From Candidatus Woesearchaeota archaeon (GTDB lineage Archaea > Nanobdellota > Nanobdellia > Woesearchaeales > DSVV01): a DNA stretch of 64,000 nucleotides. The translations under genes and the position numbers were made by a program. The DNA is taken from NCBI GenBank assembly GCA_018661705.1, contig JABJHR010000003.1, forward strand, positions 601-64,600, written 5' to 3'. Below are positions 1 through 27,308 of this stretch, in pieces (the stretch's first letter is position 1; each line of letters opens with the position of its first letter). The notes under the pieces were generated by a model that did no database searches, was not told the origin of the DNA, and worked only from the letters and a program-made list of their open reading frames with translations.

Positions 1-2125
1 GACTTTGTGAATTACCACAACCATTTGCATTTGTTGTAATAGTGCTTTCTGCATCAATTGTCAAATTTGCAACATTTATATCAAACCAATCAGCATCCCA
101 AGTATCACTTGTTAAATTATAACCGGAAGTTAAAGACTTAAAACTAATCATTTCATAATCACTAAAAGTTAAATTATTTACATTAAAACTTTCGCTGATA
201 TTAAAAACATCTTCTGTCCAAACTTCCCCTCCTTTATATACAAAACTAAGATTTGTTTCTGAAGGATCACCATCAAAAGTCATTGTATCTTCTATAATTG
301 TAAAATTACCTACATTAATAACACCAGTCATTTCAAGACGTAATAAACTTCCAAGTAAAGTTAAATTATTAAATGAAAAATTTACATTTTGTGAGACTTT
401 AAAACTACCATCACTTGCATAGTCAGTTACATTAAACTCCATCCCTTCATCAATCCAAGCATTATTATCATCAGTATCAACAAATAATAAAGTTCCTTCT
501 TCACCATCATCTGCACTATTTGGACCAGAACCACCAGTTACACTGCTTGCTGACATACTATTCAAACTATTTTCGTTAAAATAAACAGCAATTCTACCTC
601 CTGAACCACCACCACCACTATCAGAACCACAATTCCCACCTGCACCACCATCTGCAGTAAAATTACCAACACCAGTAAAAACATTAGATGTAACCCAAAT
701 ACTACCACCACTACCACCACCTGCGGCATAATAACTACAACTTGCTCCACCAACACCACCATTTACAGTAATTGTTCCTGATAAATTAAAAGTATCAGTA
801 GAATTAATTCTAATTACACCACCACCACTACCACCAACACCTGAACTTCCAGAAGTACCACCACCACTACCAAAATAACTTGGTCTTAAAGCACTACCAT
901 AATCACTGCCACCAGCATAATTACTTTCACCATCACCACCATCACCACCATATGCTCCACCACCACCACCATTTTGATAAATCCCATCTCTTCCTTCACC
1001 AACACCAGCAACAGAAGTTCCTTGACTAGCACATCTGTTTGAAGCATCAGGGCTTTGTGAATTACCACAACCATTTGCATTTGTAGTAATACTACTTCCT
1101 GCATCTATTGATAAATTTGCAACATCTATATCAAACCAATCTGCCTCCCAAGTATCATCTGTTAATTCATAACCAGAAGTTAATGATTTAAAACTAACCA
1201 TTTCATAATCAGTAAATGTTAACCTATTCACATTGAAACTTTCACTGATATTAAAAGCATCTTCTGTCCAAACCTCCCCACCCTTATACACAAAACTAAT
1301 ATTTTGCTCTGAAGGATCACCATCAAAAATTAAAGTTGCTTCATCAATTGTAAAATTTCCTACATTAATAACACCAGTCATTTCAAGACGTAATAAACTC
1401 CCAAGTAAAGTTAAATTATTAAATGAAAAGTTTACATTTTGTGAAGCCTTAAAACTACCATCACTAGCATAATCAGTTACATTAAACTCCATTCCTTCAT
1501 CAATCCAAGCATTATTATCATCTTTATCAACAAATAATAAAGTTCCTTCTTCACCATCAGTTGCACTTCCTGGACCAGAACCACCAGTAACAGTACTAGC
1601 AGAGAAATCATTCAAACCACCATCATCAAAGTAAACTGCAATTCTACCACCACTACCACCAGCACCATCTGCTGCACTACAGTCTCCACCTGCACCACCA
1701 TCTGCTGAGAAATTACCAACACCAGTTAAAACAATTGAACTAACCCAAATACTACCACCACTACCACCACCAGCAGCATAATAAGAACAAGTTGTACCAC
1801 CAGCACCACCATCTGCTGTAACAACACCACTTAAGTTAAAAGTATCAGTTACAATTATTCTTAAATTACCACCACCACTGCCACCAACTCCTGCATTTCC
1901 AGATGTTCCACCACCACTACCAAAATGTGATGGTCTTAAAGCACTACCATAATCACTACCGCCAGCATAACCACTATCACCATTACCACCATCACCACCA
2001 TATCCTCCTCCACCACCAGCTTCATGATAAATTCCATCTTTTCCTTCTCCTACTCCTGCACCAGTTCCCTGACTAGAACAATTATTTTCATCATCTGGGC
2101 TTTGTGAACTACCACATCCTTTCTC
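1..2125. repeat. Tandem direct repeat with a 1050-bp period, ~90% identity. Copy 1 is nt 1-1050, copy 2 is 1051-2100, and a third unit begins at ~2098 and then diverges.
   Basis: gactttgtgaattaccacaaccatttgcatttg at nt 1 recurs as ggctttgtgaattaccacaaccatttgcatttg at 1051 and as gggctttgtgaactaccaca at 2098. Long colinear near-identical blocks are visible by eye. The repeat is intragenic and encodes the 349-aa repeat of the surface protein. Confidence 0.85.
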
Positions 2126-3694
2126 ATCTGCACTTATAGTAGCACCAATATCAACTGTTAAATTAATTGCAGTTAAAGCATAATCTCCATTAACAGTTAA
2201 TGTTGCAGAATTATTTACAATAATAACATCACAAGCTGCACTTGAATTTAATATATAACTTTCATTTACAACCCAAGTTTGACCAACACCTGGACAAAGA
2301 CCATCTAGAGACACAGGTGGACCACCAAATCCAAAAATTGTTACATTATCTGTTTCATTAAAAACATCATATCCTAACAAACTACCATTACAACTTATGT
2401 TATATTCAAACTCATCTTCTGATAAAAACGTTCTTTCATATTCATAAAGTTGGTGTGCAGCAACAAAATCCATTTCATTGTTTATGCTATCATTAAAACT
2501 AATCAAACAAGTAACATTATCTCCAGAAACATTACCACCAATTAAACTACCATTCGGCATTGTATAGTTTGCAAAGAATTCAACTTCATCCAAAATATAC
2601 TTTTCTTCATCCCCTCTAAACACGCCTTCATCTGTACTATCCCAAATAACTAAACTAGTTACATTTGTAACATTTGTTTGGTTTGTTTGATTAATTGATG
2701 CATAAATAGTAATATTATCCATAATGTTCAAAGGGACATAACCAAGCAAAGAACCATCACAACTTATGTTGTAATCATAATCACCTGCTTCTTCAAAAGT
2801 ATTATCAAATTCATATAAATCATATGCACCAATATAATTCATTTCATCAGAATCACCATTTGAAAAATTAATTACACAATTAACACCTTCTCCGTCTGTT
2901 TCTTTTCCAATTGCACTTCCATTTTCCATACTGTAATTTGCAAAAAACTCTACTTCCTCATAAGTAAACATTTCCTGATTACCATGAAACTCTCCAAGAT
3001 CTGAATTATCCCAAATAGTTAAGTTTGCAATGTTTGTTTCATTACTTCCCCCACCTGCATAAGCAGTAAAGTGTGTTACTGAGAACGAGATAGTATTTCC
3101 ATTATCAACAAAAGGTGTATTTGTTTCTTGCCAACCATGAAGATCAACACATTCAAACTCTTCTTTATCAAACTCATCACACCTCATAATATACTCAACA
3201 TTATGTGTTTTAGGTAAAGTTAGAGATGCGCTTTCAATTTCTACTGTATCAGAGGCAAAAACAGCTGTCTTAATAAAACCAAATCTTTCATCATCCTCAT
3301 CTAAAGTATCAATGATTGTTTTTAATTCAAGACTTTCATTGTGACTATTAATCCCATAAATCTCAACAATTGCTTCAGGAGTTTCCCCTACATGTACAAG
3401 CCCAGGAATACCAGGGGAACTACTTAAGGTAACATCAAATAAATTATCCTCTCTTTTCGTAATATCATGGTGCCCTGTTGCATAGCCATATTGATCGTGT
3501 AAATCAACATCAATAATTCTGACTTCCACATCTGGATTTTGATCAACAAATGCCATTCCTGTTATTAAATTCCCACCAAGATTAAAACCACTAAAAGTTA
3601 TATCCTCTCTTAAGCCAATATGAAACACAACTGCCACAATCAAAACTAAAAGAATAAACCCAACACCAGTTGTTTTGTTAATTCTTTGTTTCAT
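1..3694 (-). CDS. Giant secreted Gly-rich repeat surface (glyco)protein, >1230 aa. The C-terminal part lies beyond the window start.
   Basis: Continuous minus-strand frame from the ATG at 3694 down to nt 1, with no in-window stop (hence absent from the ORF track). The N-terminus MKQRINKTTGVGFILLVLIVAVVF is a signal peptide/TM helix. There are many N-x-S/T sequons. It contains repeated ~349-aa units with GGSGG / GGAGG / CSYYAAGGGSGGSIWV segments, and a second diverged ~130-aa repeat pair (NISC[DN]GSLLGY). Confidence 0.7.
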   Translation of the reverse strand, partial: MKQRINKTTGVGFILLVLIVAVVFHIGLREDITFSGFNLGGNLITGMAFVDQNPDVEVRIIDVDLHDQYGYATGHHDITKREDNLFDVTLSSSPGIPGLVHVGETPEAIVEIYGINSHNESLELKTIIDTLDEDDERFGFIKTAVFASDTVEIESASLTLPKTHNVEYIMRCDEFDKEEFECVDLHGWQETNTPFVDNGNTISFSVTHFTAYAGGGSNETNIANLTIWDNSDLGEFHGNQEMFTYEEVEFFANYSMENGSAIGKETDGEGVNCVINFSNGDSDEMNYIGAYDLYEFDNTFEEAGDYDYNISCDGSLLGYVPLNIMDNITIYASINQTNQTNVTNVTSLVIWDSTDEGVFRGDEEKYILDEVEFFANYTMPNGSLIGGNVSGDNVTCLISFNDSINNEMDFVAAHQLYEYERTFLSEDEFEYNISCNGSLLGYDVFNETDNVTIFGFGGPPVSLDGLCPGVGQTWVVNESYILNSSAACDVIIVNNSATLTVNGDYALTAINLTVDIGATISADEKGCGSSQSPDDENNCSSQGTGAGVGEGKDGIYHEAGGGGGYGGDGGNGDSGYAGGSDYGSALRPSHFGSGGGTSGNAGVGGSGGGNLRIIVTDTFNLSGVVTADGGAGGTTCSYYAAGGGSGGSIWVSSIVLTGVGNFSADGGAGGDCSAADGAGGSGGRIAVYFDDGGLNDFSASTVTGGSGPGSATDGEEGTLLFVDKDDNNAWIDEGMEFNVTDYASDGSFKASQNVNFSFNNLTLLGSLLRLEMTGVINVGNFTIDEATLIFDGDPSEQNISFVYKGGEVWTEDAFNISESFNVNRLTFTDYEMVSFKSLTSGYELTDDTWEADWFDIDVANLSIDAGSSITTNANGCGNSQSPDASNRCASQGTSVAGVGEGRDGIYQNGGGGGAYGGDGGDGESNYAGGSDYGSALRPSYFGSGGGTSGSSGVGGSGGGVIRINSTDTFNLSGTITVNGGVGGASCSYYAAGGGSGGSIWVTSNVFTGVGNFTADGGAGGNCGSDSGGGGSGGRIAVYFNENSLNSMSASSVTGGSGPNSADDGEEGTLLFVDTDDNNAWIDEGMEFNVTDYASDGSFKVSQNVNFSFNNLTLLGSLLRLEMTGVINVGNFTIIEDTMTFDGDPSETNLSFVYKGGEVWTEDVFNISESFNVNNLTFSDYEMISFKSLTSGYNLTSDTWDADWFDINVANLTIDAESTITTNANGCGNSQS

Positions 3695-4263
3695 TTTAGT
3701 TTTTTACCCCTCATAGGATTTTTTTTGTGGGGATTCTTTCTTTCAGAATTCAGTTTTTTTATTGCACGATTGTATACAGTCCAAATTGTTCTTTGATTTC
3801 TTCCAAGAAGTTTTCCAATTTCATTATATTTCAATTCTTTATCATCTTTCAAGAACTTAACAAGAGCTTCTAACATACTTAATTTAGAAACAAAAATATT
3901 TAATGGAACAAACACAATAGCACCAGTAACTTTTCTGTGTTTATCAACAACATTAATTGTTCTAAATTTCTTAAGATGTTTCTTTGATGCTTTTGAGTAA
4001 CTAATTCTTACATTAGCTTCACTTTTTTGTAGTTTTGCAGCAATATCTTTAAGTTTTAGATTTAGATTTTCTCGGAGATATTTAACCACAGCTTCTAAAC
4101 AACCTAATTCAGGAACAAATATAGAACTAGGCAAAAAGATCTCATTATACCAAGATTTTATGATTTTTTGAGGGTCATGATTAGGTTTTACCTTGTGATA
4201 AGCATAAACAAGTTTAAGAAAATCTTTGTCATTACAGATTTTTTGATGATTTTTTGTCATCAA
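3691..4263 (-). CDS. Small DNA-binding protein with two tandem sigma-70 region-4 / LuxR-like HTH motifs.
   Basis: Two internal repeats, LGCLEAVVKYLRENLNLKLKDIAAKLQKSEANVRISYSKASKK and LSMLEALVKFLKDDKELKYNEIGKLLGRNQRTIWTVYNRAIKKL, match the ECF sigma r4 pattern (L..RE..V..L...G.S..EIA..LG.S..TV......A..KL). Its stop overlaps the start of the downstream giant gene (ATGA). Confidence 0.5.
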   Translation of the reverse strand: MMTKNHQKICNDKDFLKLVYAYHKVKPNHDPQKIIKSWYNEIFLPSSIFVPELGCLEAVVKYLRENLNLKLKDIAAKLQKSEANVRISYSKASKKHLKKFRTINVVDKHRKVTGAIVFVPLNIFVSKLSMLEALVKFLKDDKELKYNEIGKLLGRNQRTIWTVYNRAIKKLNSERKNPHKKNPMRGKKLK

Positions 4264-4657
4264 TCTGTTAAATTTATAACTAAAAACCTAAGAAGTCCCT
4301 CCTAATAATTCAAACAAAAAACCCATATTCAACATTTTCAGCTCATTCATTTCTTACACCCCTTATATTTTAGTTATATTATATATATATCGATCAGATA
4401 GATCCATTTTATAAACTATGTAAGTATCTATTTATAAACTTTCTTATAAAATACTTACAAATAGATATAAATCAAGAATAATTAATAATTATTAATAATA
4501 ATTAAAGATAATTAAATATAGTAAAAAATAATAAATATTTAATAAAAAGAAATAAATAACAATAAAAAACACAAGTTTAGAATTATTCAATGAATTATTT
4601 AATGAATAAATCAATAAAAAACAAAGAAGAAACGTGAAAAAAAGAAGAAAAGTTAAA

Positions 4658-5767
4658 TTACAAGAAATCTGTTTCAACATTTAAAGAATCAACAGTAGGA
4701 TATTCTTTAACAATTGCAATTTTAATAGATTTAGAACATTTTTTAAGTTCTTTTACTAGTTTTTCAACAACAACTGTTGTTGTTAGTAATCTTTTTCTTT
4801 TTTTATCTAAACCATAATACTTTTTTGGAACATTATTTTGTTTTAAAACATTAATTATGCACTTCAAACTAGTTCCATTATGATAATAAATTGCTCCCCT
4901 AATTAACATTCCTTCTTCATCAACAATATCGTATGGTTTCGCAGCATTCTTTGACCTTTTTTTAATTCTATTTCTTAATTGAACATTATCTTTTAATTTA
5001 CAAGTGCAATAATGAACATTTAGTTTGTATTTTTTTGTAAAAATATATTTCAAAAGTTTTTTTGATAATTCTTCACTGCCTTTAACTCCATAACTATACT
5101 TGTCTTTTGCTCTAAAGCCTTTCTCGACGAGCTTACAAGCATTAGTATCACTAATTTCTAGTTCATTTAAATTCAAAAATTTAATTTTATTTCTTTTTTT
5201 ATCTTTATTACAAAGAAAATCAATCATTTTTTTATACTGTTTTTCAATACCAGGAATTACTGGAACTTCAACACCAATATCCCAACCATATTTTTCTGCA
5301 AGAGTTATTTTTTCCCAAAAATTAGAATTATAAACATCTAAATGAAATCTAATTTCATCTAAACCAGCATTAAAAAGTTTTTTTAATTTATTATCAGCAA
5401 CAAGTTCCAATGGGGTGTATAAATGAATATGAAATTTTTCACCAAACCTTTTTTTTAGTGCTTTAATAAATTTAATTGTTCGTTCTAATTTAATTAATGG
5501 GTCCCCTCCTGTGATACCAACGCCTTTACTACCACAAAGTGTTATTTCAGTAAACAAATCATTAATTTGTCGAGATGGCCATTCATTAAAATAGATTACA
5601 TCTTTATTTTTTTTCTGATCACTAATTGGACAAAAAAAGCAATTTTTACTGCATAATCCAGTGATTAATAAAACTGTTTTTTCACCTTTAATACATTGTT
5701 GACAACCTTTTGCAAGACTACCAATTTTGTAAGAATTAAATTTTGTTTTTTGTATTTTTTTTATCAT
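4658..5767 (-). CDS. Radical SAM domain protein.
   Basis: CSKNCFFC (CxxxCxxC) cluster motif near the N-terminus, plus a GGDP glycine motif. I place the start at the internal Met (MIKKIQ...) at 5767 instead of the ORF-track start at 5836. Confidence 0.6.
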   Translation of the reverse strand: MIKKIQKTKFNSYKIGSLAKGCQQCIKGEKTVLLITGLCSKNCFFCPISDQKKNKDVIYFNEWPSRQINDLFTEITLCGSKGVGITGGDPLIKLERTIKFIKALKKRFGEKFHIHLYTPLELVADNKLKKLFNAGLDEIRFHLDVYNSNFWEKITLAEKYGWDIGVEVPVIPGIEKQYKKMIDFLCNKDKKRNKIKFLNLNELEISDTNACKLVEKGFRAKDKYSYGVKGSEELSKKLLKYIFTKKYKLNVHYCTCKLKDNVQLRNRIKKRSKNAAKPYDIVDEEGMLIRGAIYYHNGTSLKCIINVLKQNNVPKKYYGLDKKRKRLLTTTVVVEKLVKELKKCSKSIKIAIVKEYPTVDSLNVETDFL

Positions 5768-5813
5768 TTTATTTAAAAAAGATAATTGATTATTATAAAA
5801 TAAAAAATAATAG

Positions 5814-6428
5814 TTAATCTGCCCCGCAGTAATCATGTCCTGGACATAATTTTAAATTTTTATTCTGTTCTTGAATTTTTTTAACTTTTTCTAAACTTTT
5901 TTTCATTTCTTCTGAAATTGACGTGGGAAGATCAGTTCTTCCAACACATAAATTAACCCCTGTTTCAATATTACCACCAAAATAAGTATCACCAGTAAAC
6001 AAAACCTTATCTTTTTCATACCAAAGACAAATACTTCCACGTGTATGACCAGGAGTATTTATGGTCTGTAAACCATTCATGTTCACCATTGGTTTTAATT
6101 TTTCATCCAAAAACTTCATCCTTGCAATAATTTCTGCATCTAAGACAGTAAATTCAGGATTTTCTTTAAAATCTTTAATTTCTTGTTTTGAAGCAAAAAA
6201 TTCAGCATTAGGAAATAAATCTGCGTTCCCAATATGGTCGTAATGTAAGTGAGTAAAAATAACTTTTTCTACTTTATCTAATGCAATCAATTTTGGTAAT
6301 AATAATTTTAAAACACTTGATTTAATTCTATCACCAGTATCAATAATTATTTTTTGATCAAAATCTAAGAGATATAGATTAGAATCTAACCCTAATTTCC
6401 AAATATTGTTTGATATCTTTTTTAACAT
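5814..6428 (-). CDS. MBL-fold metallo-hydrolase.
   Basis: THLHYDHIGN (HxHxDH) and downstream PGHTRGS / CPGHD motifs typical of the metallo-beta-lactamase fold. Confidence 0.75.
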   Translation of the reverse strand: MLKKISNNIWKLGLDSNLYLLDFDQKIIIDTGDRIKSSVLKLLLPKLIALDKVEKVIFTHLHYDHIGNADLFPNAEFFASKQEIKDFKENPEFTVLDAEIIARMKFLDEKLKPMVNMNGLQTINTPGHTRGSICLWYEKDKVLFTGDTYFGGNIETGVNLCVGRTDLPTSISEEMKKSLEKVKKIQEQNKNLKLCPGHDYCGAD

Positions 6429-6506
6429 GATATATAGTTAATAAGGCTTATATTTATACTTTTGGCATTTGTAAGAAAATCATAAAAAGACTTAATTTGT
6501 CAAAAA

Positions 6507-6516
6507 CTATATAAAT
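6507..6516 (+). promoter_or_regulatory. Archaeal TATA box (ctatataaat) ~25-30 bp upstream of the ATG at 6540.
   Basis: A TATA-like octamer at the canonical distance for a leaderless archaeal transcript. Confidence 0.3.
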
Positions 6517-6539
6517 CAAGATAATAGATATAAAATACA

Positions 6540-7382
6540 ATGGAAAAAAGCATAGAATCATTTGATGGAACAAGATTATTTTACATCCATAAAGAAACAA
6601 ATAATCCACACACAATCATTTTTTTACATGGGATTGGCGGGAACTGGACAGTTTGGAGAAAAGAAATAGATTTTTTCATTGAAAAAGGATATTCAATAAT
6701 TGCACCAGACTTGAGAGGACACGGATTATCTGATCGCCCTGTTGAAAAAGAAAGATACGACATACACCATTTTAGCGACGATATAAAAAATATTTTGAAG
6801 AAAGAAAGAGTTAAGAAATTTAGTATTATTGGGCATAGTTTAGGTGGTATGATTGCTTTAAATTATTGTGAAATAAGTAAACAATTACCAAAATCATTAG
6901 TGCTTATTGATACAGCACATAGATTTCCTTATAAAACAGATCATGAGTTTAAGCTAAACCCATATCTAATACATTTATTAAGGAAATTATCAAATAGTAA
7001 ATACCATTTAGTAAATTTCTTTCCACATTTATGCAATGATAGAGAAGAGTTAAAAAGTTTTAAAGCAAAGCACAATATTTTGTTTAGTTTAATATATCAT
7101 ACTCCATTAAAATGCATTTTTAATTGTGTTGATAGTTTTCATGAATACTCAGATAAACATGTAAAAGACACCGAACAAGTTCTAAAATCCTTAAATATAC
7201 CTGTATTAATTATTGCCTCAAATAAAGATAGAACAATTAATCCAAAATATTCAAAAGAATTGCATGAATTAATTAAAGAATCAGAATTAAAAGCAATTAA
7301 TCATAGACATCATCGAGTCCATATTAGGGCTAATGAATTAAACTCAAATATTTTCGAATTTCTAACAAAATACAAGTTATAA
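6540..7382 (+). CDS. Alpha/beta-fold hydrolase.
   Basis: GHSLGG nucleophile-elbow motif (GxSxG) and an HG oxyanion motif (FLHGIGG). Confidence 0.75.
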   Translation: MEKSIESFDGTRLFYIHKETNNPHTIIFLHGIGGNWTVWRKEIDFFIEKGYSIIAPDLRGHGLSDRPVEKERYDIHHFSDDIKNILKKERVKKFSIIGHSLGGMIALNYCEISKQLPKSLVLIDTAHRFPYKTDHEFKLNPYLIHLLRKLSNSKYHLVNFFPHLCNDREELKSFKAKHNILFSLIYHTPLKCIFNCVDSFHEYSDKHVKDTEQVLKSLNIPVLIIASNKDRTINPKYSKELHELIKESELKAINHRHHRVHIRANELNSNIFEFLTKYKL

Positions 7383-7587
7383 AATTAATTTGCTAGATTT
7401 GAATTATATAAAACAATATAACGGCAAAATAACAATAAAAACATTGTTTTCATTATTGAAAAGAAATAATAAATAGACCGGTATAAAGGTAGCGTCGACA
7501 AAAAGAATAAAATTTGAAATCACTACTCTGAAATAACTATTCCAACACATATTTCTATTTATATTAGTTTCTAATACTTATGATAAA

Positions 7588-8916
7588 ATGGTAGGAAAAC
7601 TGTTGGGAACATTAGCAGGACTTGGTCTTGGTATGGGTGTTGTAGGAACTGCAAATGCTGCAGACATTGATGATTACTTAGCTAGAAGAGCTATAGAAAA
7701 TATTTCTAATGTTACAATTGAAGCACCTGAAATATTATTAAGAGGGCCCCTATCCATTTATGCAATGGAGAATAACAAAGATGACAATGCTTATATTGGA
7801 CCTGATCCAAATGAAAATACTAAAACAGAAGATCCATTAATGGTTAAATTACCAGATTTAGATAATATTAGAGAACCGCAAAAAGAAGATACTCCTTTAA
7901 TTAAACCTATTACATTATCAAAAGGTTGGGATTTAGATTTAATGTTTGAATTTCTCATAGTTCCAAAATTAATGGGATGTGATGCACTAGAAGAAAGATT
8001 AGATGTTACCAGAGAAGGCTTTGAAGGATCAATGGGTGAAGAATTTGGTAATCAATTACAAATTAGTCCAATGTTTGGATCATTAGGTGTAGTAACAAGA
8101 TTAACATCACCATGGGGATTTACAAGCAGAGATCATTTAACATTTTTATTAAGTGCACATTATGCATCATCTTCAATCTTTGGAAAAATAACAAGTAAAA
8201 AAGATTATAATGCAACATTATTAGATGGTGTAATTGAATTAGGAAAAACAACTGCACTTTGGGAACAAAATCTAAATCACCATCTTGCCCTATTAGCAGG
8301 AATTGGTTATGATTGGGATTTAGTAAGAAAACCTAATTTCAAATTAGGAGCAGAACTTAGTGCAAGAGCCGGCCTAGCTTATATGGAATTTTCCACATTA
8401 TTAGATTTATTTGTTCATGACACAACCCAATTTGAAAAATTTACTTACGAGGTTGCTGCTGCCATTGATGTATACAGACATAGATTTACAGAATCAGAAG
8501 GAGATGCCTGGGGTGGCCTTGGAAGATTTGAAGGAACATTCCAATTTAGATTCTGGAAAGGTCTTGCTTTAGATATAGGTGGTGGTTTTCAGGTAGAAGA
8601 ATATTCTAATTTTCATATGAATGTAACAGAATATTCAGGAGGATTTCCCGATCAAGAGATTAGTGAATATTTGGTAAGAAAAAATCCAATTAATGATAGA
8701 GATGATGTTGGAAACATAGATAACAATATTAATCCTATGACAAGAAATGGATGGTATGCATTTGCAAGACTAGGGTGGACATTTTCAGGTATTTTTGGTA
8801 CAAAAAAAATTGAAACAGAAACAGGGGAGAAAGAGTTATATTTACCTATACAATATTTAACACCAGCAACAACAACAGATAATTCAACAACAACAGAAAC
8901 AAGACTCTTAAGATAG
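7588..8916 (+). CDS. Secreted hypothetical protein with a Sec signal peptide, beta-rich.
   Basis: The N-terminus MVGKLLGTLAGLGLGMGVVGTANA|AD has an AxA cleavage site. Alternating hydrophobic beta-strand-like segments are rich in G, Y, F and W. GC content is locally higher than in neighbouring genes. Confidence 0.5.
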   Translation: MVGKLLGTLAGLGLGMGVVGTANAADIDDYLARRAIENISNVTIEAPEILLRGPLSIYAMENNKDDNAYIGPDPNENTKTEDPLMVKLPDLDNIREPQKEDTPLIKPITLSKGWDLDLMFEFLIVPKLMGCDALEERLDVTREGFEGSMGEEFGNQLQISPMFGSLGVVTRLTSPWGFTSRDHLTFLLSAHYASSSIFGKITSKKDYNATLLDGVIELGKTTALWEQNLNHHLALLAGIGYDWDLVRKPNFKLGAELSARAGLAYMEFSTLLDLFVHDTTQFEKFTYEVAAAIDVYRHRFTESEGDAWGGLGRFEGTFQFRFWKGLALDIGGGFQVEEYSNFHMNVTEYSGGFPDQEISEYLVRKNPINDRDDVGNIDNNINPMTRNGWYAFARLGWTFSGIFGTKKIETETGEKELYLPIQYLTPATTTDNSTTTETRLLR

Positions 8917-8945
8917 AAGTTCTTAAAACTTACTTTTTTCTTTTA

Positions 8946-10511
8946 TCAATCTATATACTTATTCTTAATCCTACAAACATTAAACAATTCATGATCATGG
9001 CAATGAAGACAGATACAAGGATTAATAATAGATCTATCGTTCAAATAAGATTCTTTAAAATCAGAATTAATTTCCATTAATCTCTTTAAAATGATATTAT
9101 GATATAGCTGTTTTAAATTATCATTTGCTTTAACACCTTTGTTTAAATGAATTTTAATATTAAAATTAATATTTTCTTTTTTATCATAATCCACACCAAT
9201 TCTAAAACTTTTAGTAGATTTAATTAATCTTGGATGAGAATGGAGACACATCTCTATTTGGTGAGGATAAACATTTGCGCCATCTAATGAGATTGTACCA
9301 TCACTTCTTCCAACAACATACAAAAATGGAAGTTTAAGAACATCATTTTTAAGAACTTCTTTTGTAATAGATTTATTTCCAAATTTCTTTAATTTTTTTG
9401 CAATTTTGGGTTCATATTTATCTAATAGTTTAATCATGTCTGTATATTTAATCACACCGCCTTCATCATGAAGATTATATTTTATTTTAGGACTAACAAC
9501 ATTCTTATCAAGTAAACTAATTTGATATTCTTGTTTGCCTTGTTTGTTGATATGATTAGTAATACAATGCATTGAAGGATTATATTGAAATAACATAGGC
9601 AATTTTTCATGATGTCCAAACAATTCCATACTTAATTTTTTATTCTTACTGGCCACCTTTCTTATTAATTGCGAAAACGGAGTTTCAAAACCAACACCTA
9701 TATCAATATCACTTGCACCATATGAACTAATAACTTTAGCTCCTTTTTTGAGATGATTTTTAACATAATCAACCCATTCGAGAATAATACCTTCTCCACC
9801 CGTAATGATATCAACATTATAGTCTTTCCAATTAATTTTCTTTTTTCCTTCATCAAGCAAATGTTTAACAAAAGGCGGATAACCAGCAATAATATAATTA
9901 TATTTTTTACCAAAGGTCTTTAGTGTTTTGATTATATTTTCAACATCTGTATCAGTATTTTTTACAAGACAATAATGTTCGATAATTTCGCAGAATTTAA
10001 CGCCAGTTGCCCACGGACCAGTCGACCATGCACTTAATACAATGTAATCTTTATTATCAGAATCAAAGGTATAATTAAATTCAAACTTTGCTGCTTTAAA
10101 CAACATATCTTCTTCCTTTACAGACCTTATCCAGTTTGTTGGACTCCCACTACTACCAGAACTTTCGTCAATATTTCCCCTAAAAGGAAGCACACCATTA
10201 AAACATCTAGCTTCATACCCATATTTTTTAATATAATTCTTTTTATTTGTTTGAGGCACAAATTTGTTATAATCTTCAAAAGTTTTAATTTTACTAACAT
10301 CCACATTATTTTTTTTCAAGAAATCAGCATAAGCAGGAACATTCTTGGCTGCGTGTTTAAAAACAGCAATTAATTTTTTTTTAGAAATTTCTTCTAAAAC
10401 TTCAGGATTAGACTTTGTAACAAGAATTTTGGCTTTTTTGTAATCATTCATTACAAAAGACTCAAACCTAGTTAAAACTGATACAGGTAATAATTTCACC
10501 AAATTTTTCAT
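8946..10511 (-). CDS. Adenylate-forming enzyme of the PaaK / CoF390-synthetase / GH3-like superfamily.
   Basis: A DESSGSSGSPTNW P-loop-like motif resembles the (S/T)SG(S/T)TG.P motif of acyl-adenylate-forming enzymes. Length is 521 aa. Confidence 0.4.
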   Translation of the reverse strand: MKNLVKLLPVSVLTRFESFVMNDYKKAKILVTKSNPEVLEEISKKKLIAVFKHAAKNVPAYADFLKKNNVDVSKIKTFEDYNKFVPQTNKKNYIKKYGYEARCFNGVLPFRGNIDESSGSSGSPTNWIRSVKEEDMLFKAAKFEFNYTFDSDNKDYIVLSAWSTGPWATGVKFCEIIEHYCLVKNTDTDVENIIKTLKTFGKKYNYIIAGYPPFVKHLLDEGKKKINWKDYNVDIITGGEGIILEWVDYVKNHLKKGAKVISSYGASDIDIGVGFETPFSQLIRKVASKNKKLSMELFGHHEKLPMLFQYNPSMHCITNHINKQGKQEYQISLLDKNVVSPKIKYNLHDEGGVIKYTDMIKLLDKYEPKIAKKLKKFGNKSITKEVLKNDVLKLPFLYVVGRSDGTISLDGANVYPHQIEMCLHSHPRLIKSTKSFRIGVDYDKKENINFNIKIHLNKGVKANDNLKQLYHNIILKRLMEINSDFKESYLNDRSIINPCICLHCHDHELFNVCRIKNKYID

Positions 10512-10764
10512 TGTTCTAATTTAGAGATATATCTTTATATAAAGATTGTGGTGAAACATATATTTTCAATAATGAAAATAAATAAATAGATAAAAAAGTT
10601 TATATATAGATATAGATAACTATATGGTGTCGGTTACCATTAAAGTGTGACAAACAACATAGTGATTTGGTGATAATATCGCAGAAACAGTAATTGATTT
10701 TTCAAACATTGTACTTGATAGAGTTAGATCAGAGAATAGAGTAAGTGTTAGTTACCTTTGTGGC

Positions 10765-12543
10765 ATGTATGCTATATACAAAAGCAAAGGAAAAGATGAT
10801 TTAGAATTAGTTCTTAAAGATGTTATGGAAAAGAATGTTAGGGCAAAATTAATCCCCTTTGAAGAATTTAGTGCAATAGTTACAAACCCAACACAAAGTG
10901 TTGATGCAATCCTATATCATGTTATAAAAGAAAGAATGATCCAAGAAACAGGATTGCCAAGAGAAGAACTATCTTATTTAACAGGTTATAGGGGAATATT
11001 AAAAGATCCTGAGTTTAAAGATAGAATACACTTAGCCCCTGTTAATTTTATGTTTGATCAGTTTACAAAACTAAATGCAGATAAAAATAATGTTGTAGAT
11101 GGAAATTCTCTTCGTAAAGAAAGGATATTAGGAGAAAAATTAATGATTAGACATATAGAAAGGGCATGTACATTAGAATATTTAAAAGCATTAAGATTAC
11201 ATTTTAGAGACGATAATGAAACCATTAGTCAATTATTAGAAGATGATTGGCACACTACAAGAGGTGCTTGGAATGTTTCTGGAGAAGCAAAAAGTGATGA
11301 AATAATTATATCTGATTTTTTAAACTTAGATAGTTATACAAAAAGCACAAGAAGAAAATCAATTTTATCAACGCCAGGATTTAGTGGTGACGAATATGAA
11401 AGAGCAAGTGAAGGATTAAAATTTGTCTACACATTAAATACAATAACGCATCGAGATTCAGGATGGTTAAGAAAACTTGGAGAACTTTTAAATCCATTTA
11501 TAAGAACAAGACGAGAATCCAGAGAATTACTTATGGACCTAGATAAAGGTGCATCATATAAAAAAGAGATTACCACCTTATCTCAACAAAGAGAACATGA
11601 AGCACTAAGAAGAGTAGAAGAAGCAGAAACACATTTAGAAGAACAAAAAAGATTAACAGAAATTGCAGAAGATGCAAGGGACAATGCTGAAAATGCAAGA
11701 GACCACGCCCTAGTAGCTCAAAGAAATGCTGAACAAGCAAAAACTGAACTTGAAAGAATCTATAAAAGATTTTCACATGATGTTGGAAACACCTTAAATA
11801 TGTTAGCACAACAAGCACATTCTTTGTATAATAATGCAAAAAAAGCAGAAGGTCTTGATGATATTGTAGCATTTAGGACATTTCATCAGAGACATTTATT
11901 GGCATTAAAATCTCAAAGTGAATTAAGTAAAATTAATCATGGAATTGCAGAGGCTAGTCTTTTATTCTTAGATAAAAAATATGAAAAAATTAGAACCAAA
12001 TCACAAATGTTAGATCTAGAAGAATTATTTTCTAATTTTTTACCAACAACAGCGGGCATATATAATGGACTTTTAACCAATTACGAAGAAGATAAAAATT
12101 ATGATTCAAAAAAATTATTAATTACTGAAGTGAAATTTGAACCTGGAGATTATAAAACGTTTTTACATCAATCATTATTTTACAGTTTTGCGTTTAATTT
12201 ATTTAAAAACGCATATGATGCAACAACAGATAACAATAACGAAAGAAATATTGCAGTTTATGGAAGAGACTTAGGTGATTCAATTGAACTAAGATTTAAA
12301 GATAATGGTTGTGGCATGGATGAAGAAACAAAAAGAATATTGATGACGCCGGATCAAAAAGTAGTATCAAATGAAGGAACAGGCCTTGGTTTTTTTACAA
12401 TTCGACAATTCATAGAATTATACAAAGGAACATATGAAATATTAACACAACAAGGAACTGATTCATACACAGAATTAGTTGTTACATTACCAAAAGAGCA
12501 AGTAAAAGTTCAAACAAGAAAAAGAAGAAGAACTATTGGATAG
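10765..12543 (+). CDS. Cytoplasmic sensor histidine kinase (HisKA + HATPase_c) with an uncharacterised N-terminal sensor region and a central coiled coil.
   Basis: H-box FSHDVGNTLNM, N-box NLFKNAYDAT, G1 DNGCGMD and G2 GTGLGF. No TM helices are present. Confidence 0.75.
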   Translation: MYAIYKSKGKDDLELVLKDVMEKNVRAKLIPFEEFSAIVTNPTQSVDAILYHVIKERMIQETGLPREELSYLTGYRGILKDPEFKDRIHLAPVNFMFDQFTKLNADKNNVVDGNSLRKERILGEKLMIRHIERACTLEYLKALRLHFRDDNETISQLLEDDWHTTRGAWNVSGEAKSDEIIISDFLNLDSYTKSTRRKSILSTPGFSGDEYERASEGLKFVYTLNTITHRDSGWLRKLGELLNPFIRTRRESRELLMDLDKGASYKKEITTLSQQREHEALRRVEEAETHLEEQKRLTEIAEDARDNAENARDHALVAQRNAEQAKTELERIYKRFSHDVGNTLNMLAQQAHSLYNNAKKAEGLDDIVAFRTFHQRHLLALKSQSELSKINHGIAEASLLFLDKKYEKIRTKSQMLDLEELFSNFLPTTAGIYNGLLTNYEEDKNYDSKKLLITEVKFEPGDYKTFLHQSLFYSFAFNLFKNAYDATTDNNNERNIAVYGRDLGDSIELRFKDNGCGMDEETKRILMTPDQKVVSNEGTGLGFFTIRQFIELYKGTYEILTQQGTDSYTELVVTLPKEQVKVQTRKRRRTIG

Positions 12544-15364: not shown

Positions 15365-16582
15365 TCATAAAGAATAATAATCTTGCAATACAATTTTATC
15401 AATTTCTTTAACATCTTTTACAACATATAATTTACCATTACCGGTTTCAGCTAATTTTTTTGCTAAAATCTTTCCTGGCTTATCAAGATTAATTCCAACT
15501 ACAGAAATAGTAATGCCATTCGCAGCAGCAATGTTAGCAGCATCCAAAGTTTCTTGTTGAGGATCTTTTCCAACTGTTGGCAAAGCATCTGTTAATATTA
15601 AAAGATGTTTTGTAACATCTTCTGCAGGAAACATATTAATTGCACGTTTAATTGTAACTCCAAAATCTGTTTCAGAGGTTGCTTTAATCACTGAAATTTC
15701 TTTAAGTAACATTAAAAAGTCATCTGTCGGCATTATTTCTTGTTTTATTTCTTTTCCAAACACCATTAATCCTACTTTGTCTTTTTCTTCAATTGCTTTA
15801 AACGCTAGAGAGATTCCTGCTTTTTTACACATGACTAGTTTCTCTCCTTTCATACTTCCACTACTATCCAAAGCATAAACAACATACACCTTTCCTTTAG
15901 CTTGTCTTTCAAAACTTTTTAGATCATTTATCTTTAAACTAGAATGGCCTCTTCTAATTGCAGTCTTAATTGATCTTTTCAATGCAACATCCCTATATCT
16001 ATCAGATTTTCTAAAAATTTTAGTATTTGTCTTACTACCATAAATATGATTCTTTTTATGAAACCTTTCTCCAAGAACACCTTTTGGGGTTAAATTATCA
16101 ATTTCTTCTGTGTATAAAATCAGACCAGCTAACTGAATTCCTTCGTCAGTGATTGTATTATTTTTATCAATAATTCCTTCTGCTTTAAGATCTCTTAATT
16201 GAGATTCCATTTTTCCTGCTAATTCTCTTTGAAACTCAGGAATTTTAATATTTTTTTCAATATATCTTGGATCATATCCACTAAAATATTTTATCAAAGA
16301 TTCACCATAAATATTTTTAGCTAATTTATAATTATCAACAAACTTTTCCATCATTAAATCTGGTGCAAAAGAAGTTATACCTTGGGTTAATGCACCCATA
16401 ATTAGTTTTCCATTATCAATAGTTTTTTTATCATTTTCCATGATAGAATTCATTAACTGGCTACCCTTACCTGGTTTTCCTTTTTGTTCAAAAGATGGCT
16501 CGGTTTTCTTAACCTTTGCCTTTTTACCTTTTTTTAATTTATCTACAGATTTATCACCCTGACACCTCGCCTTTCTTCTCAC
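15365..16582 (-). CDS. VWA-domain protein (ChlD-like partner of the AAA+ ATPase).
   Basis: MIDAS motif YALDSSGSM (DxSxS) in the C-terminal half, with a Lys-rich N-terminus. It overlaps the upstream ATPase gene by 29 nt. Confidence 0.7.
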   Translation of the reverse strand: MRRKARCQGDKSVDKLKKGKKAKVKKTEPSFEQKGKPGKGSQLMNSIMENDKKTIDNGKLIMGALTQGITSFAPDLMMEKFVDNYKLAKNIYGESLIKYFSGYDPRYIEKNIKIPEFQRELAGKMESQLRDLKAEGIIDKNNTITDEGIQLAGLILYTEEIDNLTPKGVLGERFHKKNHIYGSKTNTKIFRKSDRYRDVALKRSIKTAIRRGHSSLKINDLKSFERQAKGKVYVVYALDSSGSMKGEKLVMCKKAGISLAFKAIEEKDKVGLMVFGKEIKQEIMPTDDFLMLLKEISVIKATSETDFGVTIKRAINMFPAEDVTKHLLILTDALPTVGKDPQQETLDAANIAAANGITISVVGINLDKPGKILAKKLAETGNGKLYVVKDVKEIDKIVLQDYYSL

Positions 16583-17597
16583 TATTGGAAGAAAAGCCAG
16601 GGTTTTTGTCTAAAAATTTTTCAAATTCATCTTTAACAAATTTAACAGGATCTTGAAGATATTTCACAGAAGGTTTTAATTTTATCCTGTGTGCAATTAC
16701 TGATTCCATTACAGCTTTTATATCATCAAATTTAACTTCATTACTTCCATTTAATTTTGCATTTGCTTGCGCTCTTTCGTATAAACCTAGGGTAGCCCTT
16801 ACACTTGGTTTTTGTTCAAGATTTTCATTCTGTCTTAATTCTTGAATAAATGCAACACAGTAATGCAAAAGATCTTCTGGAAATGTAATTCCTAAATCAA
16901 GACCTTTTGATATTGCAATCTTTTTTTCTATTTCAAGATTTTCAGGGTAACCCATGTAAACTAAATCAAATCTATCTAATAAAACATCATTTAATTTTTC
17001 AGTTGAACTATCATGCGGATTCATTGTTGCAATCAACACAAAATCAGCTGTTAAATCAACATCATAACTCCCAATAGTTGCTTTTTTCTCCTCAAGAACT
17101 TGTAATAATGCGTTTTGTAATTTTTCAGGACACCTATTTAATTCGTCAAAGAACAAAACACCATTATTTGCCTTAAAGATCTTACCAGGGGTAAATGCTT
17201 CTAATGATAATGGACCAAATTTCATTGCTTTAATTGGGTCAATATCACCAATTAAATCTTCAGCTGTTAAATCTGGGCTTCCTTGCAGTCTTACAAAACG
17301 TTGTATTCCTGAAATTTTAATTTGTTTTACTTTTTTTCCTAAACGACAAGTAGGACATAAAGGTTCAGATGGCAAACAATTATAACCACAATCATTAACC
17401 TCTATTTCTGGTAACAATTTAGCTACACTTTTTGCTAATGTTGTTTTACCAATACCTGGTGGCCCCACTACTATAATGTGTCTGCCACATAATAAAGCAG
17501 ATTTAAGATGATGTTTGATTTCTTGTTGTCCAAGTATGTCTTGTAAAATGTCTTTCCCCAATAGTTTTAAATCTAGTTTTTTTGATATCATGGCCAT
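16554..17597 (-). CDS. Mg-chelatase subunit I-like (ChlI/BchI/MoxR) AAA+ ATPase.
   Basis: Walker A GPPGIGKTT, LLPEIEV motif followed by a Cys/Pro-rich segment as in ChlI/BchI, and ATMNP....LLDRF sensor/arginine-finger region. Confidence 0.7.
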   Translation of the reverse strand: MAMISKKLDLKLLGKDILQDILGQQEIKHHLKSALLCGRHIIVVGPPGIGKTTLAKSVAKLLPEIEVNDCGYNCLPSEPLCPTCRLGKKVKQIKISGIQRFVRLQGSPDLTAEDLIGDIDPIKAMKFGPLSLEAFTPGKIFKANNGVLFFDELNRCPEKLQNALLQVLEEKKATIGSYDVDLTADFVLIATMNPHDSSTEKLNDVLLDRFDLVYMGYPENLEIEKKIAISKGLDLGITFPEDLLHYCVAFIQELRQNENLEQKPSVRATLGLYERAQANAKLNGSNEVKFDDIKAVMESVIAHRIKLKPSVKYLQDPVKFVKDEFEKFLDKNPGFSSNSEKKGEVSG

Positions 17598-17648
17598 TAA
17601 AAAAACCACATGGCCTTTATAAAGATTCTCCTTGAAATTAACCAGAAA

Positions 17649-25291: not shown

Positions 25292-25917
25292 TTTTTTATC
25301 TTTTTCTTATTCTGAGAGGGTTCTTTTACAAATAATGATAGCAGAAATATTAAAAGGCCCACCAAAATTACGTTTATAAAAGCATTGTTCTTAAGTTTTG
25401 TATTAAAAAAGAGACTCATACCAGTAATTAAATTATGTTCTTCATGATTTATGGAATTATTAAGAGACGTGTCAGTAAGACCATCATTTAAAGATTCATT
25501 TGCGAAATAAAATTCAATAGGATTAATTTGATTAGTAATATTAAGTCTGGCTTTTACACCAATACTGCTTTTAATTTTTCTTCCAGGTTTATAGACGGAG
25601 ATAAGAATAATATCTTCATAAATTTTGCTATCAAAACCTTGTTTTTTATTTACAACCACAGAAATACTTTTTTTACTATTCTTAGACAATTTACCTTCTG
25701 ATGGGAAAAAGCTCAGAAATTCATTTGTTGAGGAAACTACAAAATCAAAACTCGCATTATTTGAATTAATAATCCATAAAGTCTGATTTACAGATTCATT
25801 TTCAAGAAAAATCTTTGGTGGACTAACACCAATACTAGCAGCATTAACAGAGATTGAAAATAAAGATAAACCAAGAACAAAAAAGATAAGAAATAAAAAA
25901 AAATTTAATTTGTTCAT
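25288..25917 (-). CDS. Secreted/membrane-anchored hypothetical protein.
   Basis: Signal peptide MNKLNFFLFLIFFVLGLSLFSISVNA, a C-terminal hydrophobic anchor and a basic tail. There is a 4-nt overlap with the upstream LTD gene. Confidence 0.45.
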   Translation of the reverse strand: MNKLNFFLFLIFFVLGLSLFSISVNAASIGVSPPKIFLENESVNQTLWIINSNNASFDFVVSSTNEFLSFFPSEGKLSKNSKKSISVVVNKKQGFDSKIYEDIILISVYKPGRKIKSSIGVKARLNITNQINPIEFYFANESLNDGLTDTSLNNSINHEEHNLITGMSLFFNTKLKNNAFINVILVGLLIFLLSLFVKEPSQNKKKIKN

Positions 25918-27308
25918 GAAGCAACACCCACAATGTTCATGTTTGCACCATACATGTCTGGTTTCAAATATTTTTCAAGGTGTAATTTAAAACCAAGACC
26001 AATTGTTTGGTTCACACCAAAATTTAAACTTTCCATTGCCATTACCAACTCAGGTGTTACATTATAATATTCTGCACCAAGACTATATTGTAGGTTATTA
26101 TCATTAATTGCAAGATCACCACTATAAATACCATAACTTAAGTTTGTATTACCTAAATTTTTAATTGTTGGGCTAGTTGTAGTACTAAAATCTAAATCGC
26201 CATTAATTTCTGCAGTTTCTTTATTCTTTGCATTATCAAACACAAGAGATTCAGCATCAATATCAAAGGCAATTAATGGTAAATATTCCATTACAAAATT
26301 TTGTTCACTATTTTCACTACTTTTATCAGTAGCACTTAACAAAAGATTATAATCACCTGGCGCATTGTAATAATCAAAAAGAACATCTCCTGAAAATAAA
26401 ACCCAGTCAGTATTATTCTCAGTGTTTGTTAGTACTACTTCTTGCACATAATCTTGCGCCGTAATTAAAACTTTAACATTGTTAATATCAGAAACACCAT
26501 CATTATCTGCAACAACAACATTTAATGGAATTGTTTTTATTGCACCGGGTTCTGGTAATACTTGGTATCCTTCTTCTTCATTATCATCTACAGTGAGATT
26601 ATAGTTTAGAATAAGGGGAAGGGAATTAGTGAGATTAATAAACAAGGGTAGATCCACTTCAGAGTCATCTGTATCAGGATCTTCTTGTTCTTCCTCACCA
26701 CCATTCCCTTCATCTTCGGGATCACCCTGTGGGACTTCAACCACAGAACTAGAGTTGTGAAAATTAGGTTGAGAAATTATTAAGTCATTAAGATTATTGT
26801 CAGTATCTACAAAATTTAGTCTTGCTAAAACAAAACCAGAATCTGGATTATAAGCAGGTGTTGTTTCATATAATCCTGGTTCAATACTTTCAGTATCACC
26901 CCAACCAATTACATCAACAATAACATCTTCTGCAGTAATTAATGCTATACCAGAATTTGTATTATACATTGTTAGTGCTTCTTCATGGTCTGCATTTGGC
27001 CAAGATTCGTTATCTTTAAGAACACCCCAGCCATTATCAGCAATCAAATAATAACTATTTGCGCTGATAATGGCTCCATCTAATAAAGTCACATCACTAT
27101 TGCTACTTTCAGTTTTTATTTTGTATCCAGAAATATCAATCTCTGATGTCGTAGGATTGTATAATTCAATTGCTTCCCCACCTGCTTCAGTATCCACTGC
27201 ATCAACATAAACTTGATTAATAACAATATGTTCTGTTGCCATTGCTGAAATTGCAACTACAAGTATAAAAAAACCAATTATTGGTAATAATAAAACTATC
27301 TTTCTCAT
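25914..27308 (-). CDS. Secreted Lamin-tail-domain (LTD) protein.
   Basis: Signal peptide MRKIVLLLPIIGFFILVVAISAMA, then HIVINQVYVD ... GGEAIELYNPTTSEIDISGYKIK, the LTD signature (INE...E[FW]IELYN). The acidic linker is EEEQEDPDTDDSE. Confidence 0.6.
   Translation of the reverse strand: MRKIVLLLPIIGFFILVVAISAMATEHIVINQVYVDAVDTEAGGEAIELYNPTTSEIDISGYKIKTESSNSDVTLLDGAIISANSYYLIADNGWGVLKDNESWPNADHEEALTMYNTNSGIALITAEDVIVDVIGWGDTESIEPGLYETTPAYNPDSGFVLARLNFVDTDNNLNDLIISQPNFHNSSSVVEVPQGDPEDEGNGGEEEQEDPDTDDSEVDLPLFINLTNSLPLILNYNLTVDDNEEEGYQVLPEPGAIKTIPLNVVVADNDGVSDINNVKVLITAQDYVQEVVLTNTENNTDWVLFSGDVLFDYYNAPGDYNLLLSATDKSSENSEQNFVMEYLPLIAFDIDAESLVFDNAKNKETAEINGDLDFSTTTSPTIKNLGNTNLSYGIYSGDLAINDNNLQYSLGAEYYNVTPELVMAMESLNFGVNQTIGLGFKLHLEKYLKPDMYGANMNIVGVAS

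Follow-up and report, generated by a model that had tools for sequence, protein, structure and literature searches.

What is the biological function of a giant archaeal protein that is built from long, glycine-rich tandem units? The question is raised by a 64,000-nucleotide stretch of contig JABJHR010000003.1 from a Candidatus Woesearchaeota archaeon (assembly GCA_018661705.1, positions 601 to 64,600 of the forward strand; hereafter the window), whose first 3694 nucleotides hold a minus-strand open reading frame (ORF) that continues beyond the window edge. We propose that the encoded protein is probably an N-terminally anchored, N-glycosylated fibre of this Woesearchaeota archaeon, a member of the DPANN group (Diapherotrites, Parvarchaeota, Aenigmarchaeota, Nanoarchaeota and Nanohaloarchaeota), with an adhesive or structural role in attachment or in the envelope. 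Proteins of this kind are already known, including in DPANN archaea; the Gly-rich module from which this one is built is itself uncharacterised.

Domain architecture, glycosylation signatures and payload exchange

The frame from position 3694 to position 1 is stop-free over 1231 codons, as a preliminary description of this DNA had stated, and its translation starts with MKQRINK. A public protein (P0001, 'hypothetical protein HN695_04505, partial [Candidatus Woesearchaeota archaeon]', 1431 residues) shows 100% identity to this translation. This label and the archaeal markers in the window (RadA, a Taw1-type wyosine enzyme, an RPA-like OB-fold protein and RNase J) bear out the DPANN origin at which the same description had guessed. 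Searches with phmmer and alignments define the following domain map; structural models are from AlphaFold2, with confidence given as predicted local distance difference test (pLDDT) and predicted template modelling (pTM) scores.

1..3694 (-): the ORF, encoding residues 1-1231; the full protein has at least 1431 residues, and its C-terminus lies past the window and past every public contig
3611..3694 (-): N-terminal basic stretch and sole hydrophobic segment (residues ~8-28), a candidate signal anchor or signal peptide; the N-termini of homologues are alike
3029..3610 (-): N-terminal region, residues 29-222, of which the first ~110 are kept in close relatives only
2675..3028 (-): immunoglobulin (Ig)-like beta-sandwich domain 1, residues 223-340, sequon-dense, with Cys pair 273/312 and pLDDT 80-96
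2309..2674 (-): Ig-like domain 2, residues 341-462, paralogous to domain 1
2180..2308 (-): linker or N-terminal cap, residues 463-505, which leads into unit 1 and is shared with residues 139-192 of the homologue P0002 (phmmer, E 3e-17)
1133..2179 (-): repeat unit 1, residues 506-854, comprising a cap, a Gly-rich solenoid core (predicted) and a beta-rich extension; 78% amino acid identity to unit 2
83..1132 (-): repeat unit 2, residues 855-1204, the modelled unit (pLDDT 90.9, pTM 0.91), with its conserved core at unit residues ~40-215
1..82 (-): start of repeat unit 3, residues 1205-1231, which runs on to residue 1431, the end of the public contigs

The protein displays the hallmarks of an exported polypeptide, in agreement with its initial description as a surface protein. 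Kyte-Doolittle hydropathy in a 19-residue window exceeds 1.6 solely at residues 4-16, the cysteines are paired in every domain, and the composition is acidic (D+E 14% versus K+R 2.9%). A class III (pilin-like) signal peptide at ...KTTG/VGF was considered and not adopted, given that its -2 position is not basic. Residues ~138-222 constitute a beta-rich domain that ends in THFTAYAGG and contains the Cys pair 172/182. The two Ig-like domains that follow share 47% identity over 110 residues (E 5e-38) and both have an invariant Cys pair; that of the first, Cys 273 and Cys 312, is invariant in 19 homologues. An older duplication of a domain in this part of the gene had been noticed before; it exists, as two domains of ~120 residues, and its position is nt 2309-3028 rather than 2150-3100. 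The model of residues 29-465 has a mean pLDDT of 65 and is confident only at about residues 138-333. Foldseek matches it to arrays of Ig, fibronectin type III and bacterial Ig (BIg) domains, the best being SiiE (2yn3, E 7e-7). The likeness to the BIg arrays of SiiE is at the level of the fold only, with 10-12% identity, a low template modelling (TM) score for the multi-domain model and no Pfam Big match in the protein studied here. No paralogue of the Ig-like set or of the Gly-rich set occurs elsewhere in the window.

N-x-S/T sequons, of which dozens had been noted, number 48, which is 2.6-fold more than the 18.2 +/- 3.7 found in 5000 composition-preserving shuffles (maximum 33, z = 8.1). The excess peaks in the two Ig-like domains (19 versus 3.8 expected), and the median observed/expected ratio is 0.57 in the other 50 ORFs of the window. 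In addition, the sequons in NLTIWD, FFANYT, NVSC and DNVTI are conserved in the 19-homologue alignment. The sequon excess and sequon conservation make glycosylation plausible, as the preliminary description had supposed.

The gene is accompanied by a putative regulator.

3691..4263 (-): 190-residue protein with two Sigma70_r4-like helix-turn-helix (HTH) repeats, directly upstream (Pfam Sigma70_r4_2 1.3e-7, Sigma70_r4 1.9e-4)
3405-3980 in locus L004, 3553-4014 in locus L005 and 2448-2993 in locus L007: homologous upstream double-HTH genes, often overlapping or translationally coupled with adjoining giant genes whose payloads differ

The stop codon of the HTH gene overlaps the ATG of the large ORF (ATGA), and double-HTH homologues of 31-49% identity stand directly upstream of the genes for the homologues P0003, P0005 and P0021, which suggests that Woesearchaeota-like archaea conserve a pairing of regulator and surface-protein genes. 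The locus of P0005 (L007; GCA_043813525.1, contig JBDRKY010000039.1) is syntenic with window positions 1-12543: identity is 71% for a 521-residue neighbour and 49% for the HTH gene, and an HATPase_c gene occurs there too. P0005, which is complete and lacks a C-terminal anchor, shares the N-terminal ~300 residues and then carries LamG domains where the Gly-rich units stand here. The distal payload is thus swapped at a syntenic locus. Paralogous genes of relatives bear other payloads, such as NosD/beta-helix and LamG domains.

Could the protein instead be a structural glycoprotein of an S-layer-type envelope, serving as a cell wall lattice or its spacer and not as a ligand-binding adhesin? An archaeal S-layer protein (7ptp, E 4e-5) is another match of the Ig-like array, and the protein is sequon-enriched and acidic, as archaeal S-layer glycoproteins are. 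However, the exchange of distal payloads between the loci and paralogues of relatives is unexpected of a lattice protein, and the Gly-rich module is abundant in bacteria without such an S-layer. We therefore regard an S-layer role as unlikely.

Fold and family of the Gly-rich module

What is the structure of the repeated unit? Each unit, with borders set by anchoring on the motif GC[GP]xSQSP, consists of a cap, a ~175-residue Gly-rich core (unit residues ~40-215) and a ~130-residue beta-rich extension. In the AlphaFold2 model of the 350-residue unit, built from a 46-sequence alignment, strands recur about every 37 residues (106-117, 144-153, 180-188 and 214-219) and the beta-rich extension spans residues 251-333. 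Residues 17-105 are modelled at pLDDT 83-98 with almost no DSSP helix or strand. Independently of this model, mean-field direct coupling analysis (DCA) of 794 copies (effective number of sequences, Meff, 724) places 37 of the 100 strongest couplings at a separation of 33-41 residues, 23 of them in the 36-38 bin, although register slips among the internal repeats of the alignment could inflate these couplings. The pairs are in register (V106-S144, I107-I145, G125-G162, G138-G174, D161-S197 and R180-T214), which is the signature of parallel stacked coils. The core is thus predicted to be a beta-solenoid of parallel coils of ~37 residues each.

This prediction answers the question, left by the preliminary description, of a beta-helix or a beta-roll. 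A repeats-in-toxin (RTX) beta-roll was rejected, given that GGxGxD occurs four times in 1431 residues, never in tandem, and HemolysinCabind has no match. The right-handed parallel beta-helix families PF13229 (Beta_helix) and PF05048 (NosD) do not match at E<=1, and the NosD/Beta_helix labels on the homologues P0003 and P0004 arise from other parts of those proteins. Foldseek finds nothing significant for the unit model in the PDB; its weak matches are all beta-solenoids (E >=0.65, TM <=0.17). These include adhesins and exoproteins that use extracellular stacked parallel coils for attachment, namely the tapirin C-terminal domain (6n2b), the two-partner secretion (TPS) domains of HpmA/FHA type, Hap and EtpA. 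The unit differs from them in its ~37-residue coils with long Gly-rich arcs and in the absence of a TPS/autotransporter signature and of a Beta_helix/NosD match. Marginal Foldseek matches in BFVD to Gly-rich giant-virus proteins (E 7e-4, query TM score 0.34) were treated as composition-driven.

The Gly-rich core defines a large family. A full HMMER scan of unit 2 against 1.84 billion cluster representatives, clustered at the 50% identity level, retrieved at least 4479 proteins at E<=1e-3, 530 of them at E<=1e-30. Secreted proteins that bear the core are up to 7138 residues long and hold 2-11 copies each, and their partner domains include dockerin, LamG and Ig. The consensus of 819 copies reads

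...GGGGGGhGG.GG.G..g..GG..YGS...P..lGSGGG.g.....GGaGGGAirL.V.GtLtldG.IsANG..G...gGGGSGGSIWitagtL.G.G.IsANGG.G...GGGGGGGRIAiYY...

and units 1-3 all match the profile that defines the family (alignment A1), with Y78, P84, S89, R180 and I181 as conserved non-Gly positions. The Gly stretches belong to a conserved ~175-residue domain with invariant non-Gly positions, and a reading of them as loose low-complexity repeats is not supported. None of 46 module copies consistently matches any Pfam family at E<=1, the whole protein has nothing above threshold in Pfam, NCBIfam or PDB sequences, alignment A1 used as a profile retrieves nothing from the PDB (0 matches), and the cluster-member names of ten homologues are uninformative. 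The module is common to archaea and bacteria and is uncharacterised, without a Pfam family or a solved relative.

Among curated models, just one overlaps the Gly-rich core, that of the N-terminal domain of AgmC from Myxococcus (NCBIfam NF047640, gliding_AgmC_N). It is matched by 29 of the 46 copies at model positions ~216-405 (best E 9e-12) and weakly by the query protein itself (E 0.01, 14.8 bits). Because the scores of 15-74 bits, the highest from the best homologue, fall far under the 275-bit cut-off, the module copies are not AgmC equivalogs. Moreover, the overlap is confined to a single sub-region of the model, and the module here sits in an archaeal host and a different domain context. 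To our knowledge, the mechanism of AgmC is known only from a gliding-motility mutant screen, and a literature search on AgmC and Gly-rich Woesearchaeota surface proteins returned nothing relevant. The repeats of chlamydial polymorphic membrane proteins (GGA[ILV] / FxxN) offer a pattern-level likeness (GGS-IWV ... G-NFTA-DGG). They were rejected as relatives, given that PF02415 matches neither the protein nor the 46 copies at E up to 1 and that the coil length differs as well.

Tracts of (GGx)n are also shared with glycine-rich polyproline II (PPII) helix bundle domains, such as the ALK/LTK glycine-rich domain, the tip of phage S16 gp38, snow-flea antifreeze protein and the Obg N-domain; 10.1101/2023.11.25.568672 lists the six known members of this class. 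Unit residues 17-105, with high pLDDT and almost no DSSP assignment, look as PPII segments would, which is only suggestive. However, there is no sequence or Foldseek match to these domains, and the co-variation indicates parallel coil stacking, not an antiparallel PPII bundle. A speculative and rather improbable extension is that the core is a new kind of solenoid, in which (GGx)n arcs form polyglycine-II-like segments along one face of a beta-solenoid with 37-residue coils. This element would be a shared fibre or contact element marking cell-contact lifestyles, in DPANN and candidate phyla radiation (CPR) episymbionts as well as in Bdellovibrio-like and myxobacterial predators.

The taxonomic distribution of the module is suggestive of contact-dependent lifestyles. 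The 79 loci in GTDB species genomes (L008-L086), which derive from the best 80 matches to the archaeal query, comprise 8 from archaea, 17 from CPR/Patescibacteria, 27 from Planctomycetota-Verrucomicrobiota-Chlamydiota (PVC) bacteria and others from various groups. Six of the eight archaeal loci are labelled Nanoarchaeota, Woesearchaeota or Aenigmarchaeota, and nine of the 79 belong to Bdellovibrionota, Bradymonadales or Myxococcota. The module thus occurs chiefly in DPANN archaea, CPR/Patescibacteria, PVC phyla and predatory bacteria, the last comprising Bdellovibrio, Halobacteriovorax, Bradymonadales and Myxococcota, and the Bdellovibrio genome NZ_CP178623.1 has three loci.

Might the solenoid units be catalytic, for example a beta-helix scaffold for a polysaccharide lyase or hydrolase, so that the protein degrades the envelope of a partner? 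PL6 alginate lyase and the RbmB lyase are among the weak Foldseek matches, and murein-directed enzymes are also encoded in the window. However, the lyase matches are insignificant (E 5-8, TM <=0.15), no Pfam or NCBIfam enzyme family is matched, conservation falls mainly on Gly and structural residues, and whole-unit tandem near-copies are atypical of enzymes. A catalytic function is therefore very unlikely. Slightly less probable still is that the module binds a non-biological ligand such as ice, a mineral or metal ions, in the manner of Gly-rich or solenoid antifreeze proteins or Ca-binding beta-rolls. The (GGx)n and acidic compositions and one weak match to a fungal ice-binding protein would fit such a role, whereas neither a tandem RTX nonapeptide nor a HemolysinCabind or other Pfam match is present, and the broad ecological spread of the family does not track cold or mineral habitats.

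Divergence of the tandem units and completeness of the gene

How did the units arise? A repeat search of the window DNA places the copies at spacings of 1050 and 1047 nt, which Tandem Repeats Finder (TRF) did not report because its longest period was 500. The preliminary description had pictured near-identical units of 1050 bp, ~90% identical and of recent expansion or concerted evolution. The periodicity holds, and the identity is lower: nt 1-1050 and 1051-2100 are 82% identical ungapped and 85% gapped, ranging from 68% to 94% across 150-nt blocks, and the longest exact match between units in the assembled part is 42 nt, so that 'near-identical' does not apply. The encoded units are 78% (1/2) and 84% (2/3) identical. 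By the Nei-Gojobori method, synonymous divergence (dS) between units is 0.33-0.41, which contradicts a recent expansion, and the ratio of nonsynonymous to synonymous divergence (dN/dS) is 0.16-0.48 (0.30-0.45 overall and 0.16 in the beta-rich extension). Given a dS of ~0.35-0.4 and these dN/dS values, the units are old copies under purifying selection, neither recent nor decaying, and no assembly artefact.

Concerted evolution fares better. In a comparison with four homologues, units within a protein are 73-83% identical here, 90% in two units of P0021 and 74% in P0026, and units of different proteins are at most 64% identical. Units that are closer within than between proteins fit lineage-specific duplication or concerted evolution. 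The motifs reported earlier are likewise present, with 15 GGxGG motifs and CSYYAAGGGSGGSIWV once per unit (residues 636, 986 and 1336, the third copy lying past the window). In P0021 (3180 residues, locus L005), residues 1282-2319 contain two adjoining units whose cap and Gly-rich part (first 225 residues) are 90% identical, and the beta-rich extensions of its units c and d are identical in sequence. To judge from these copies, within-gene homogenisation is also found in another lineage. Along nt 1-4000 of the window the GC skew is strongly negative (-0.34 to -0.50), probably reflecting minus-strand Gly (GGN) codons.

The gene is present on seven contigs; three of them, from GCA_018673555.1, GCA_018698995.1 and ERZ27237631, differ in length. 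The copies from the three assemblies are base-identical over 4294 nt and share an end nucleotide 682 nt into unit 3. A collapse of the assembly at this site had been suspected. The break of the contigs read (at least three assemblies) at the same base agrees with that suspicion, but the assembled units, with a longest exact match of 42 nt, are too diverged for the assembled part to be collapsed. The common contig end suggests that units past the break point have much longer identical stretches. A search for the rest of the gene with an exact 41-mer common to units 1 and 2 found no match in genome or metagenome contigs; a protein search with the beta-rich extension gave zero matches and did not recover the source protein itself, so that this null is uninformative. 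Because short-read assemblies cut such repeat-bearing genes at the identical base each time, their length and copy number are under-reported. That the repeat structure is itself an artefact (a chimera, or a repeat that was collapsed or wrongly joined) is scarcely credible: all contigs do end within the repeat, and repeat-driven fragmentation of large genes is documented (10.1101/2023.11.21.568195), but the 4294-nt gene recurs unchanged in three assemblies, its units differ by 15-18% with a synonymous excess, and the tandem layout is also seen in homologues from unrelated samples.

The proposed fibre and its genomic setting

How would such a protein work as a fibre? The lone N-terminal hydrophobic segment would take the chain through Sec and probably retain it in the membrane. 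A short array of Ig-like beta-sandwiches, heavily decorated with N-glycans, would follow as a stalk and carry at least three tandem 350-residue units. Each unit would form a parallel solenoid, in which a core of ~37-residue coils, each with a (GGx)n arc, a long strand, a G-x-G turn, a short strand and then [AN][DN]GG, continues into the beta-rich extension. Units stacked end to end may produce a stiff fibre that projects from the cell and contacts a partner cell, prey cell or substrate. Specificity would sit in the distal modules as an exchangeable payload. Control of the gene pair probably falls to the double-HTH protein, whose gene lies upstream and is translationally coupled.

A host-binding role has been proposed for giant surface proteins of DPANN archaea that bear Ig domains (PMC10266531). 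Compared by features, the membrane-anchored SPEARE proteins and SVXNc_0300 of nanohaloarchaea resemble the present protein in their DPANN host, N-terminal secretion signal, Ig- or fibronectin-like arrays, acidity and proposed host contact (PMC10266531). Those proteins have 5-9 thousand residues and a VirB4/TraG-like ATPase; no such ATPase domain occurs in the available 1431 residues of the partial protein. With respect to archaeosortase substrates (PGF-/PEF-CTERM), the homologue P0002 (2019 residues, locus L006) ends in ...TAIPEF, a hydrophobic, transmembrane helix and RKKN, resembling a PEF-CTERM-type sorting signal; P0005 has no such anchor, and the corresponding end of the query lies outside the contigs.

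Several points weigh against the N-anchored, glycosylated and adhesive fibre. Given that the C-terminus lies outside all contigs, a C-terminal anchor or sorting signal is possible and would reverse the polarity of the fibre. The search for STT3/AglB, confined to scanned ORFs of the window, gave none, and some N-x-T motifs of the beta-rich extension may serve as structural Asn ladders and not as glycosites. The term solenoid rests on prediction and co-variation, given that no solved structure is a significant Foldseek match. The taxonomic sample carries an uncontrolled enrichment, and its largest group, the PVC bacteria, are mostly neither symbionts nor predators.

The region upstream of the HTH gene contains possible control elements. 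Within the 394-nt intergenic region (4264-4657), AT-rich tandem repeats (period 10 x6, period 20 x4.5 and period 12 x3) occupy window positions 4477-4615, and TATA-like TTTATAAA motifs lie near 4430; the repeats and motifs may act as a promoter or an operator. A supposed operator palindrome, TGAATNATTCA, has 0 matches in the AT-rich repeats and is not present there. Further along the window, which has a GC content of 24-36% and in whose 64 kb (1-64000) ARAGORN finds zero tRNA genes, the following genes are found.

7588-8916 (+): 442-residue protein with a bacterial-looking Sec signal (..GTANA/ADIDD) and no Pfam match, kept beside the locus in other assemblies
15365-17609 (-): MoxR-type AAA ATPase and then a VWA-domain protein, together a classic MoxR-VWA pair
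25914-27308 (-): 464-residue protein with an N-terminal Lamin Tail Domain (LTD), probably secreted or at the surface
51532-52851 (+): Peptidase_M74 (murein endopeptidase-like) protein
54112-57954 (+): 1280-residue protein joining Metallophos, SLT lytic transglycosylase and NAGPA domains

The peptidoglycan-directed enzymes among these hint at an interaction with bacteria.

For the attachment of genome-reduced DPANN archaea to partners, the main candidates are large surface proteins built from repeats. The double-HTH partner and the payload swap suggest that the present gene belongs to a regulated, modular surface-protein locus. Furthermore, the confident model of the unit, together with its co-variation, provides a testable architecture for a very large, uncurated family of archaeal and bacterial modules.

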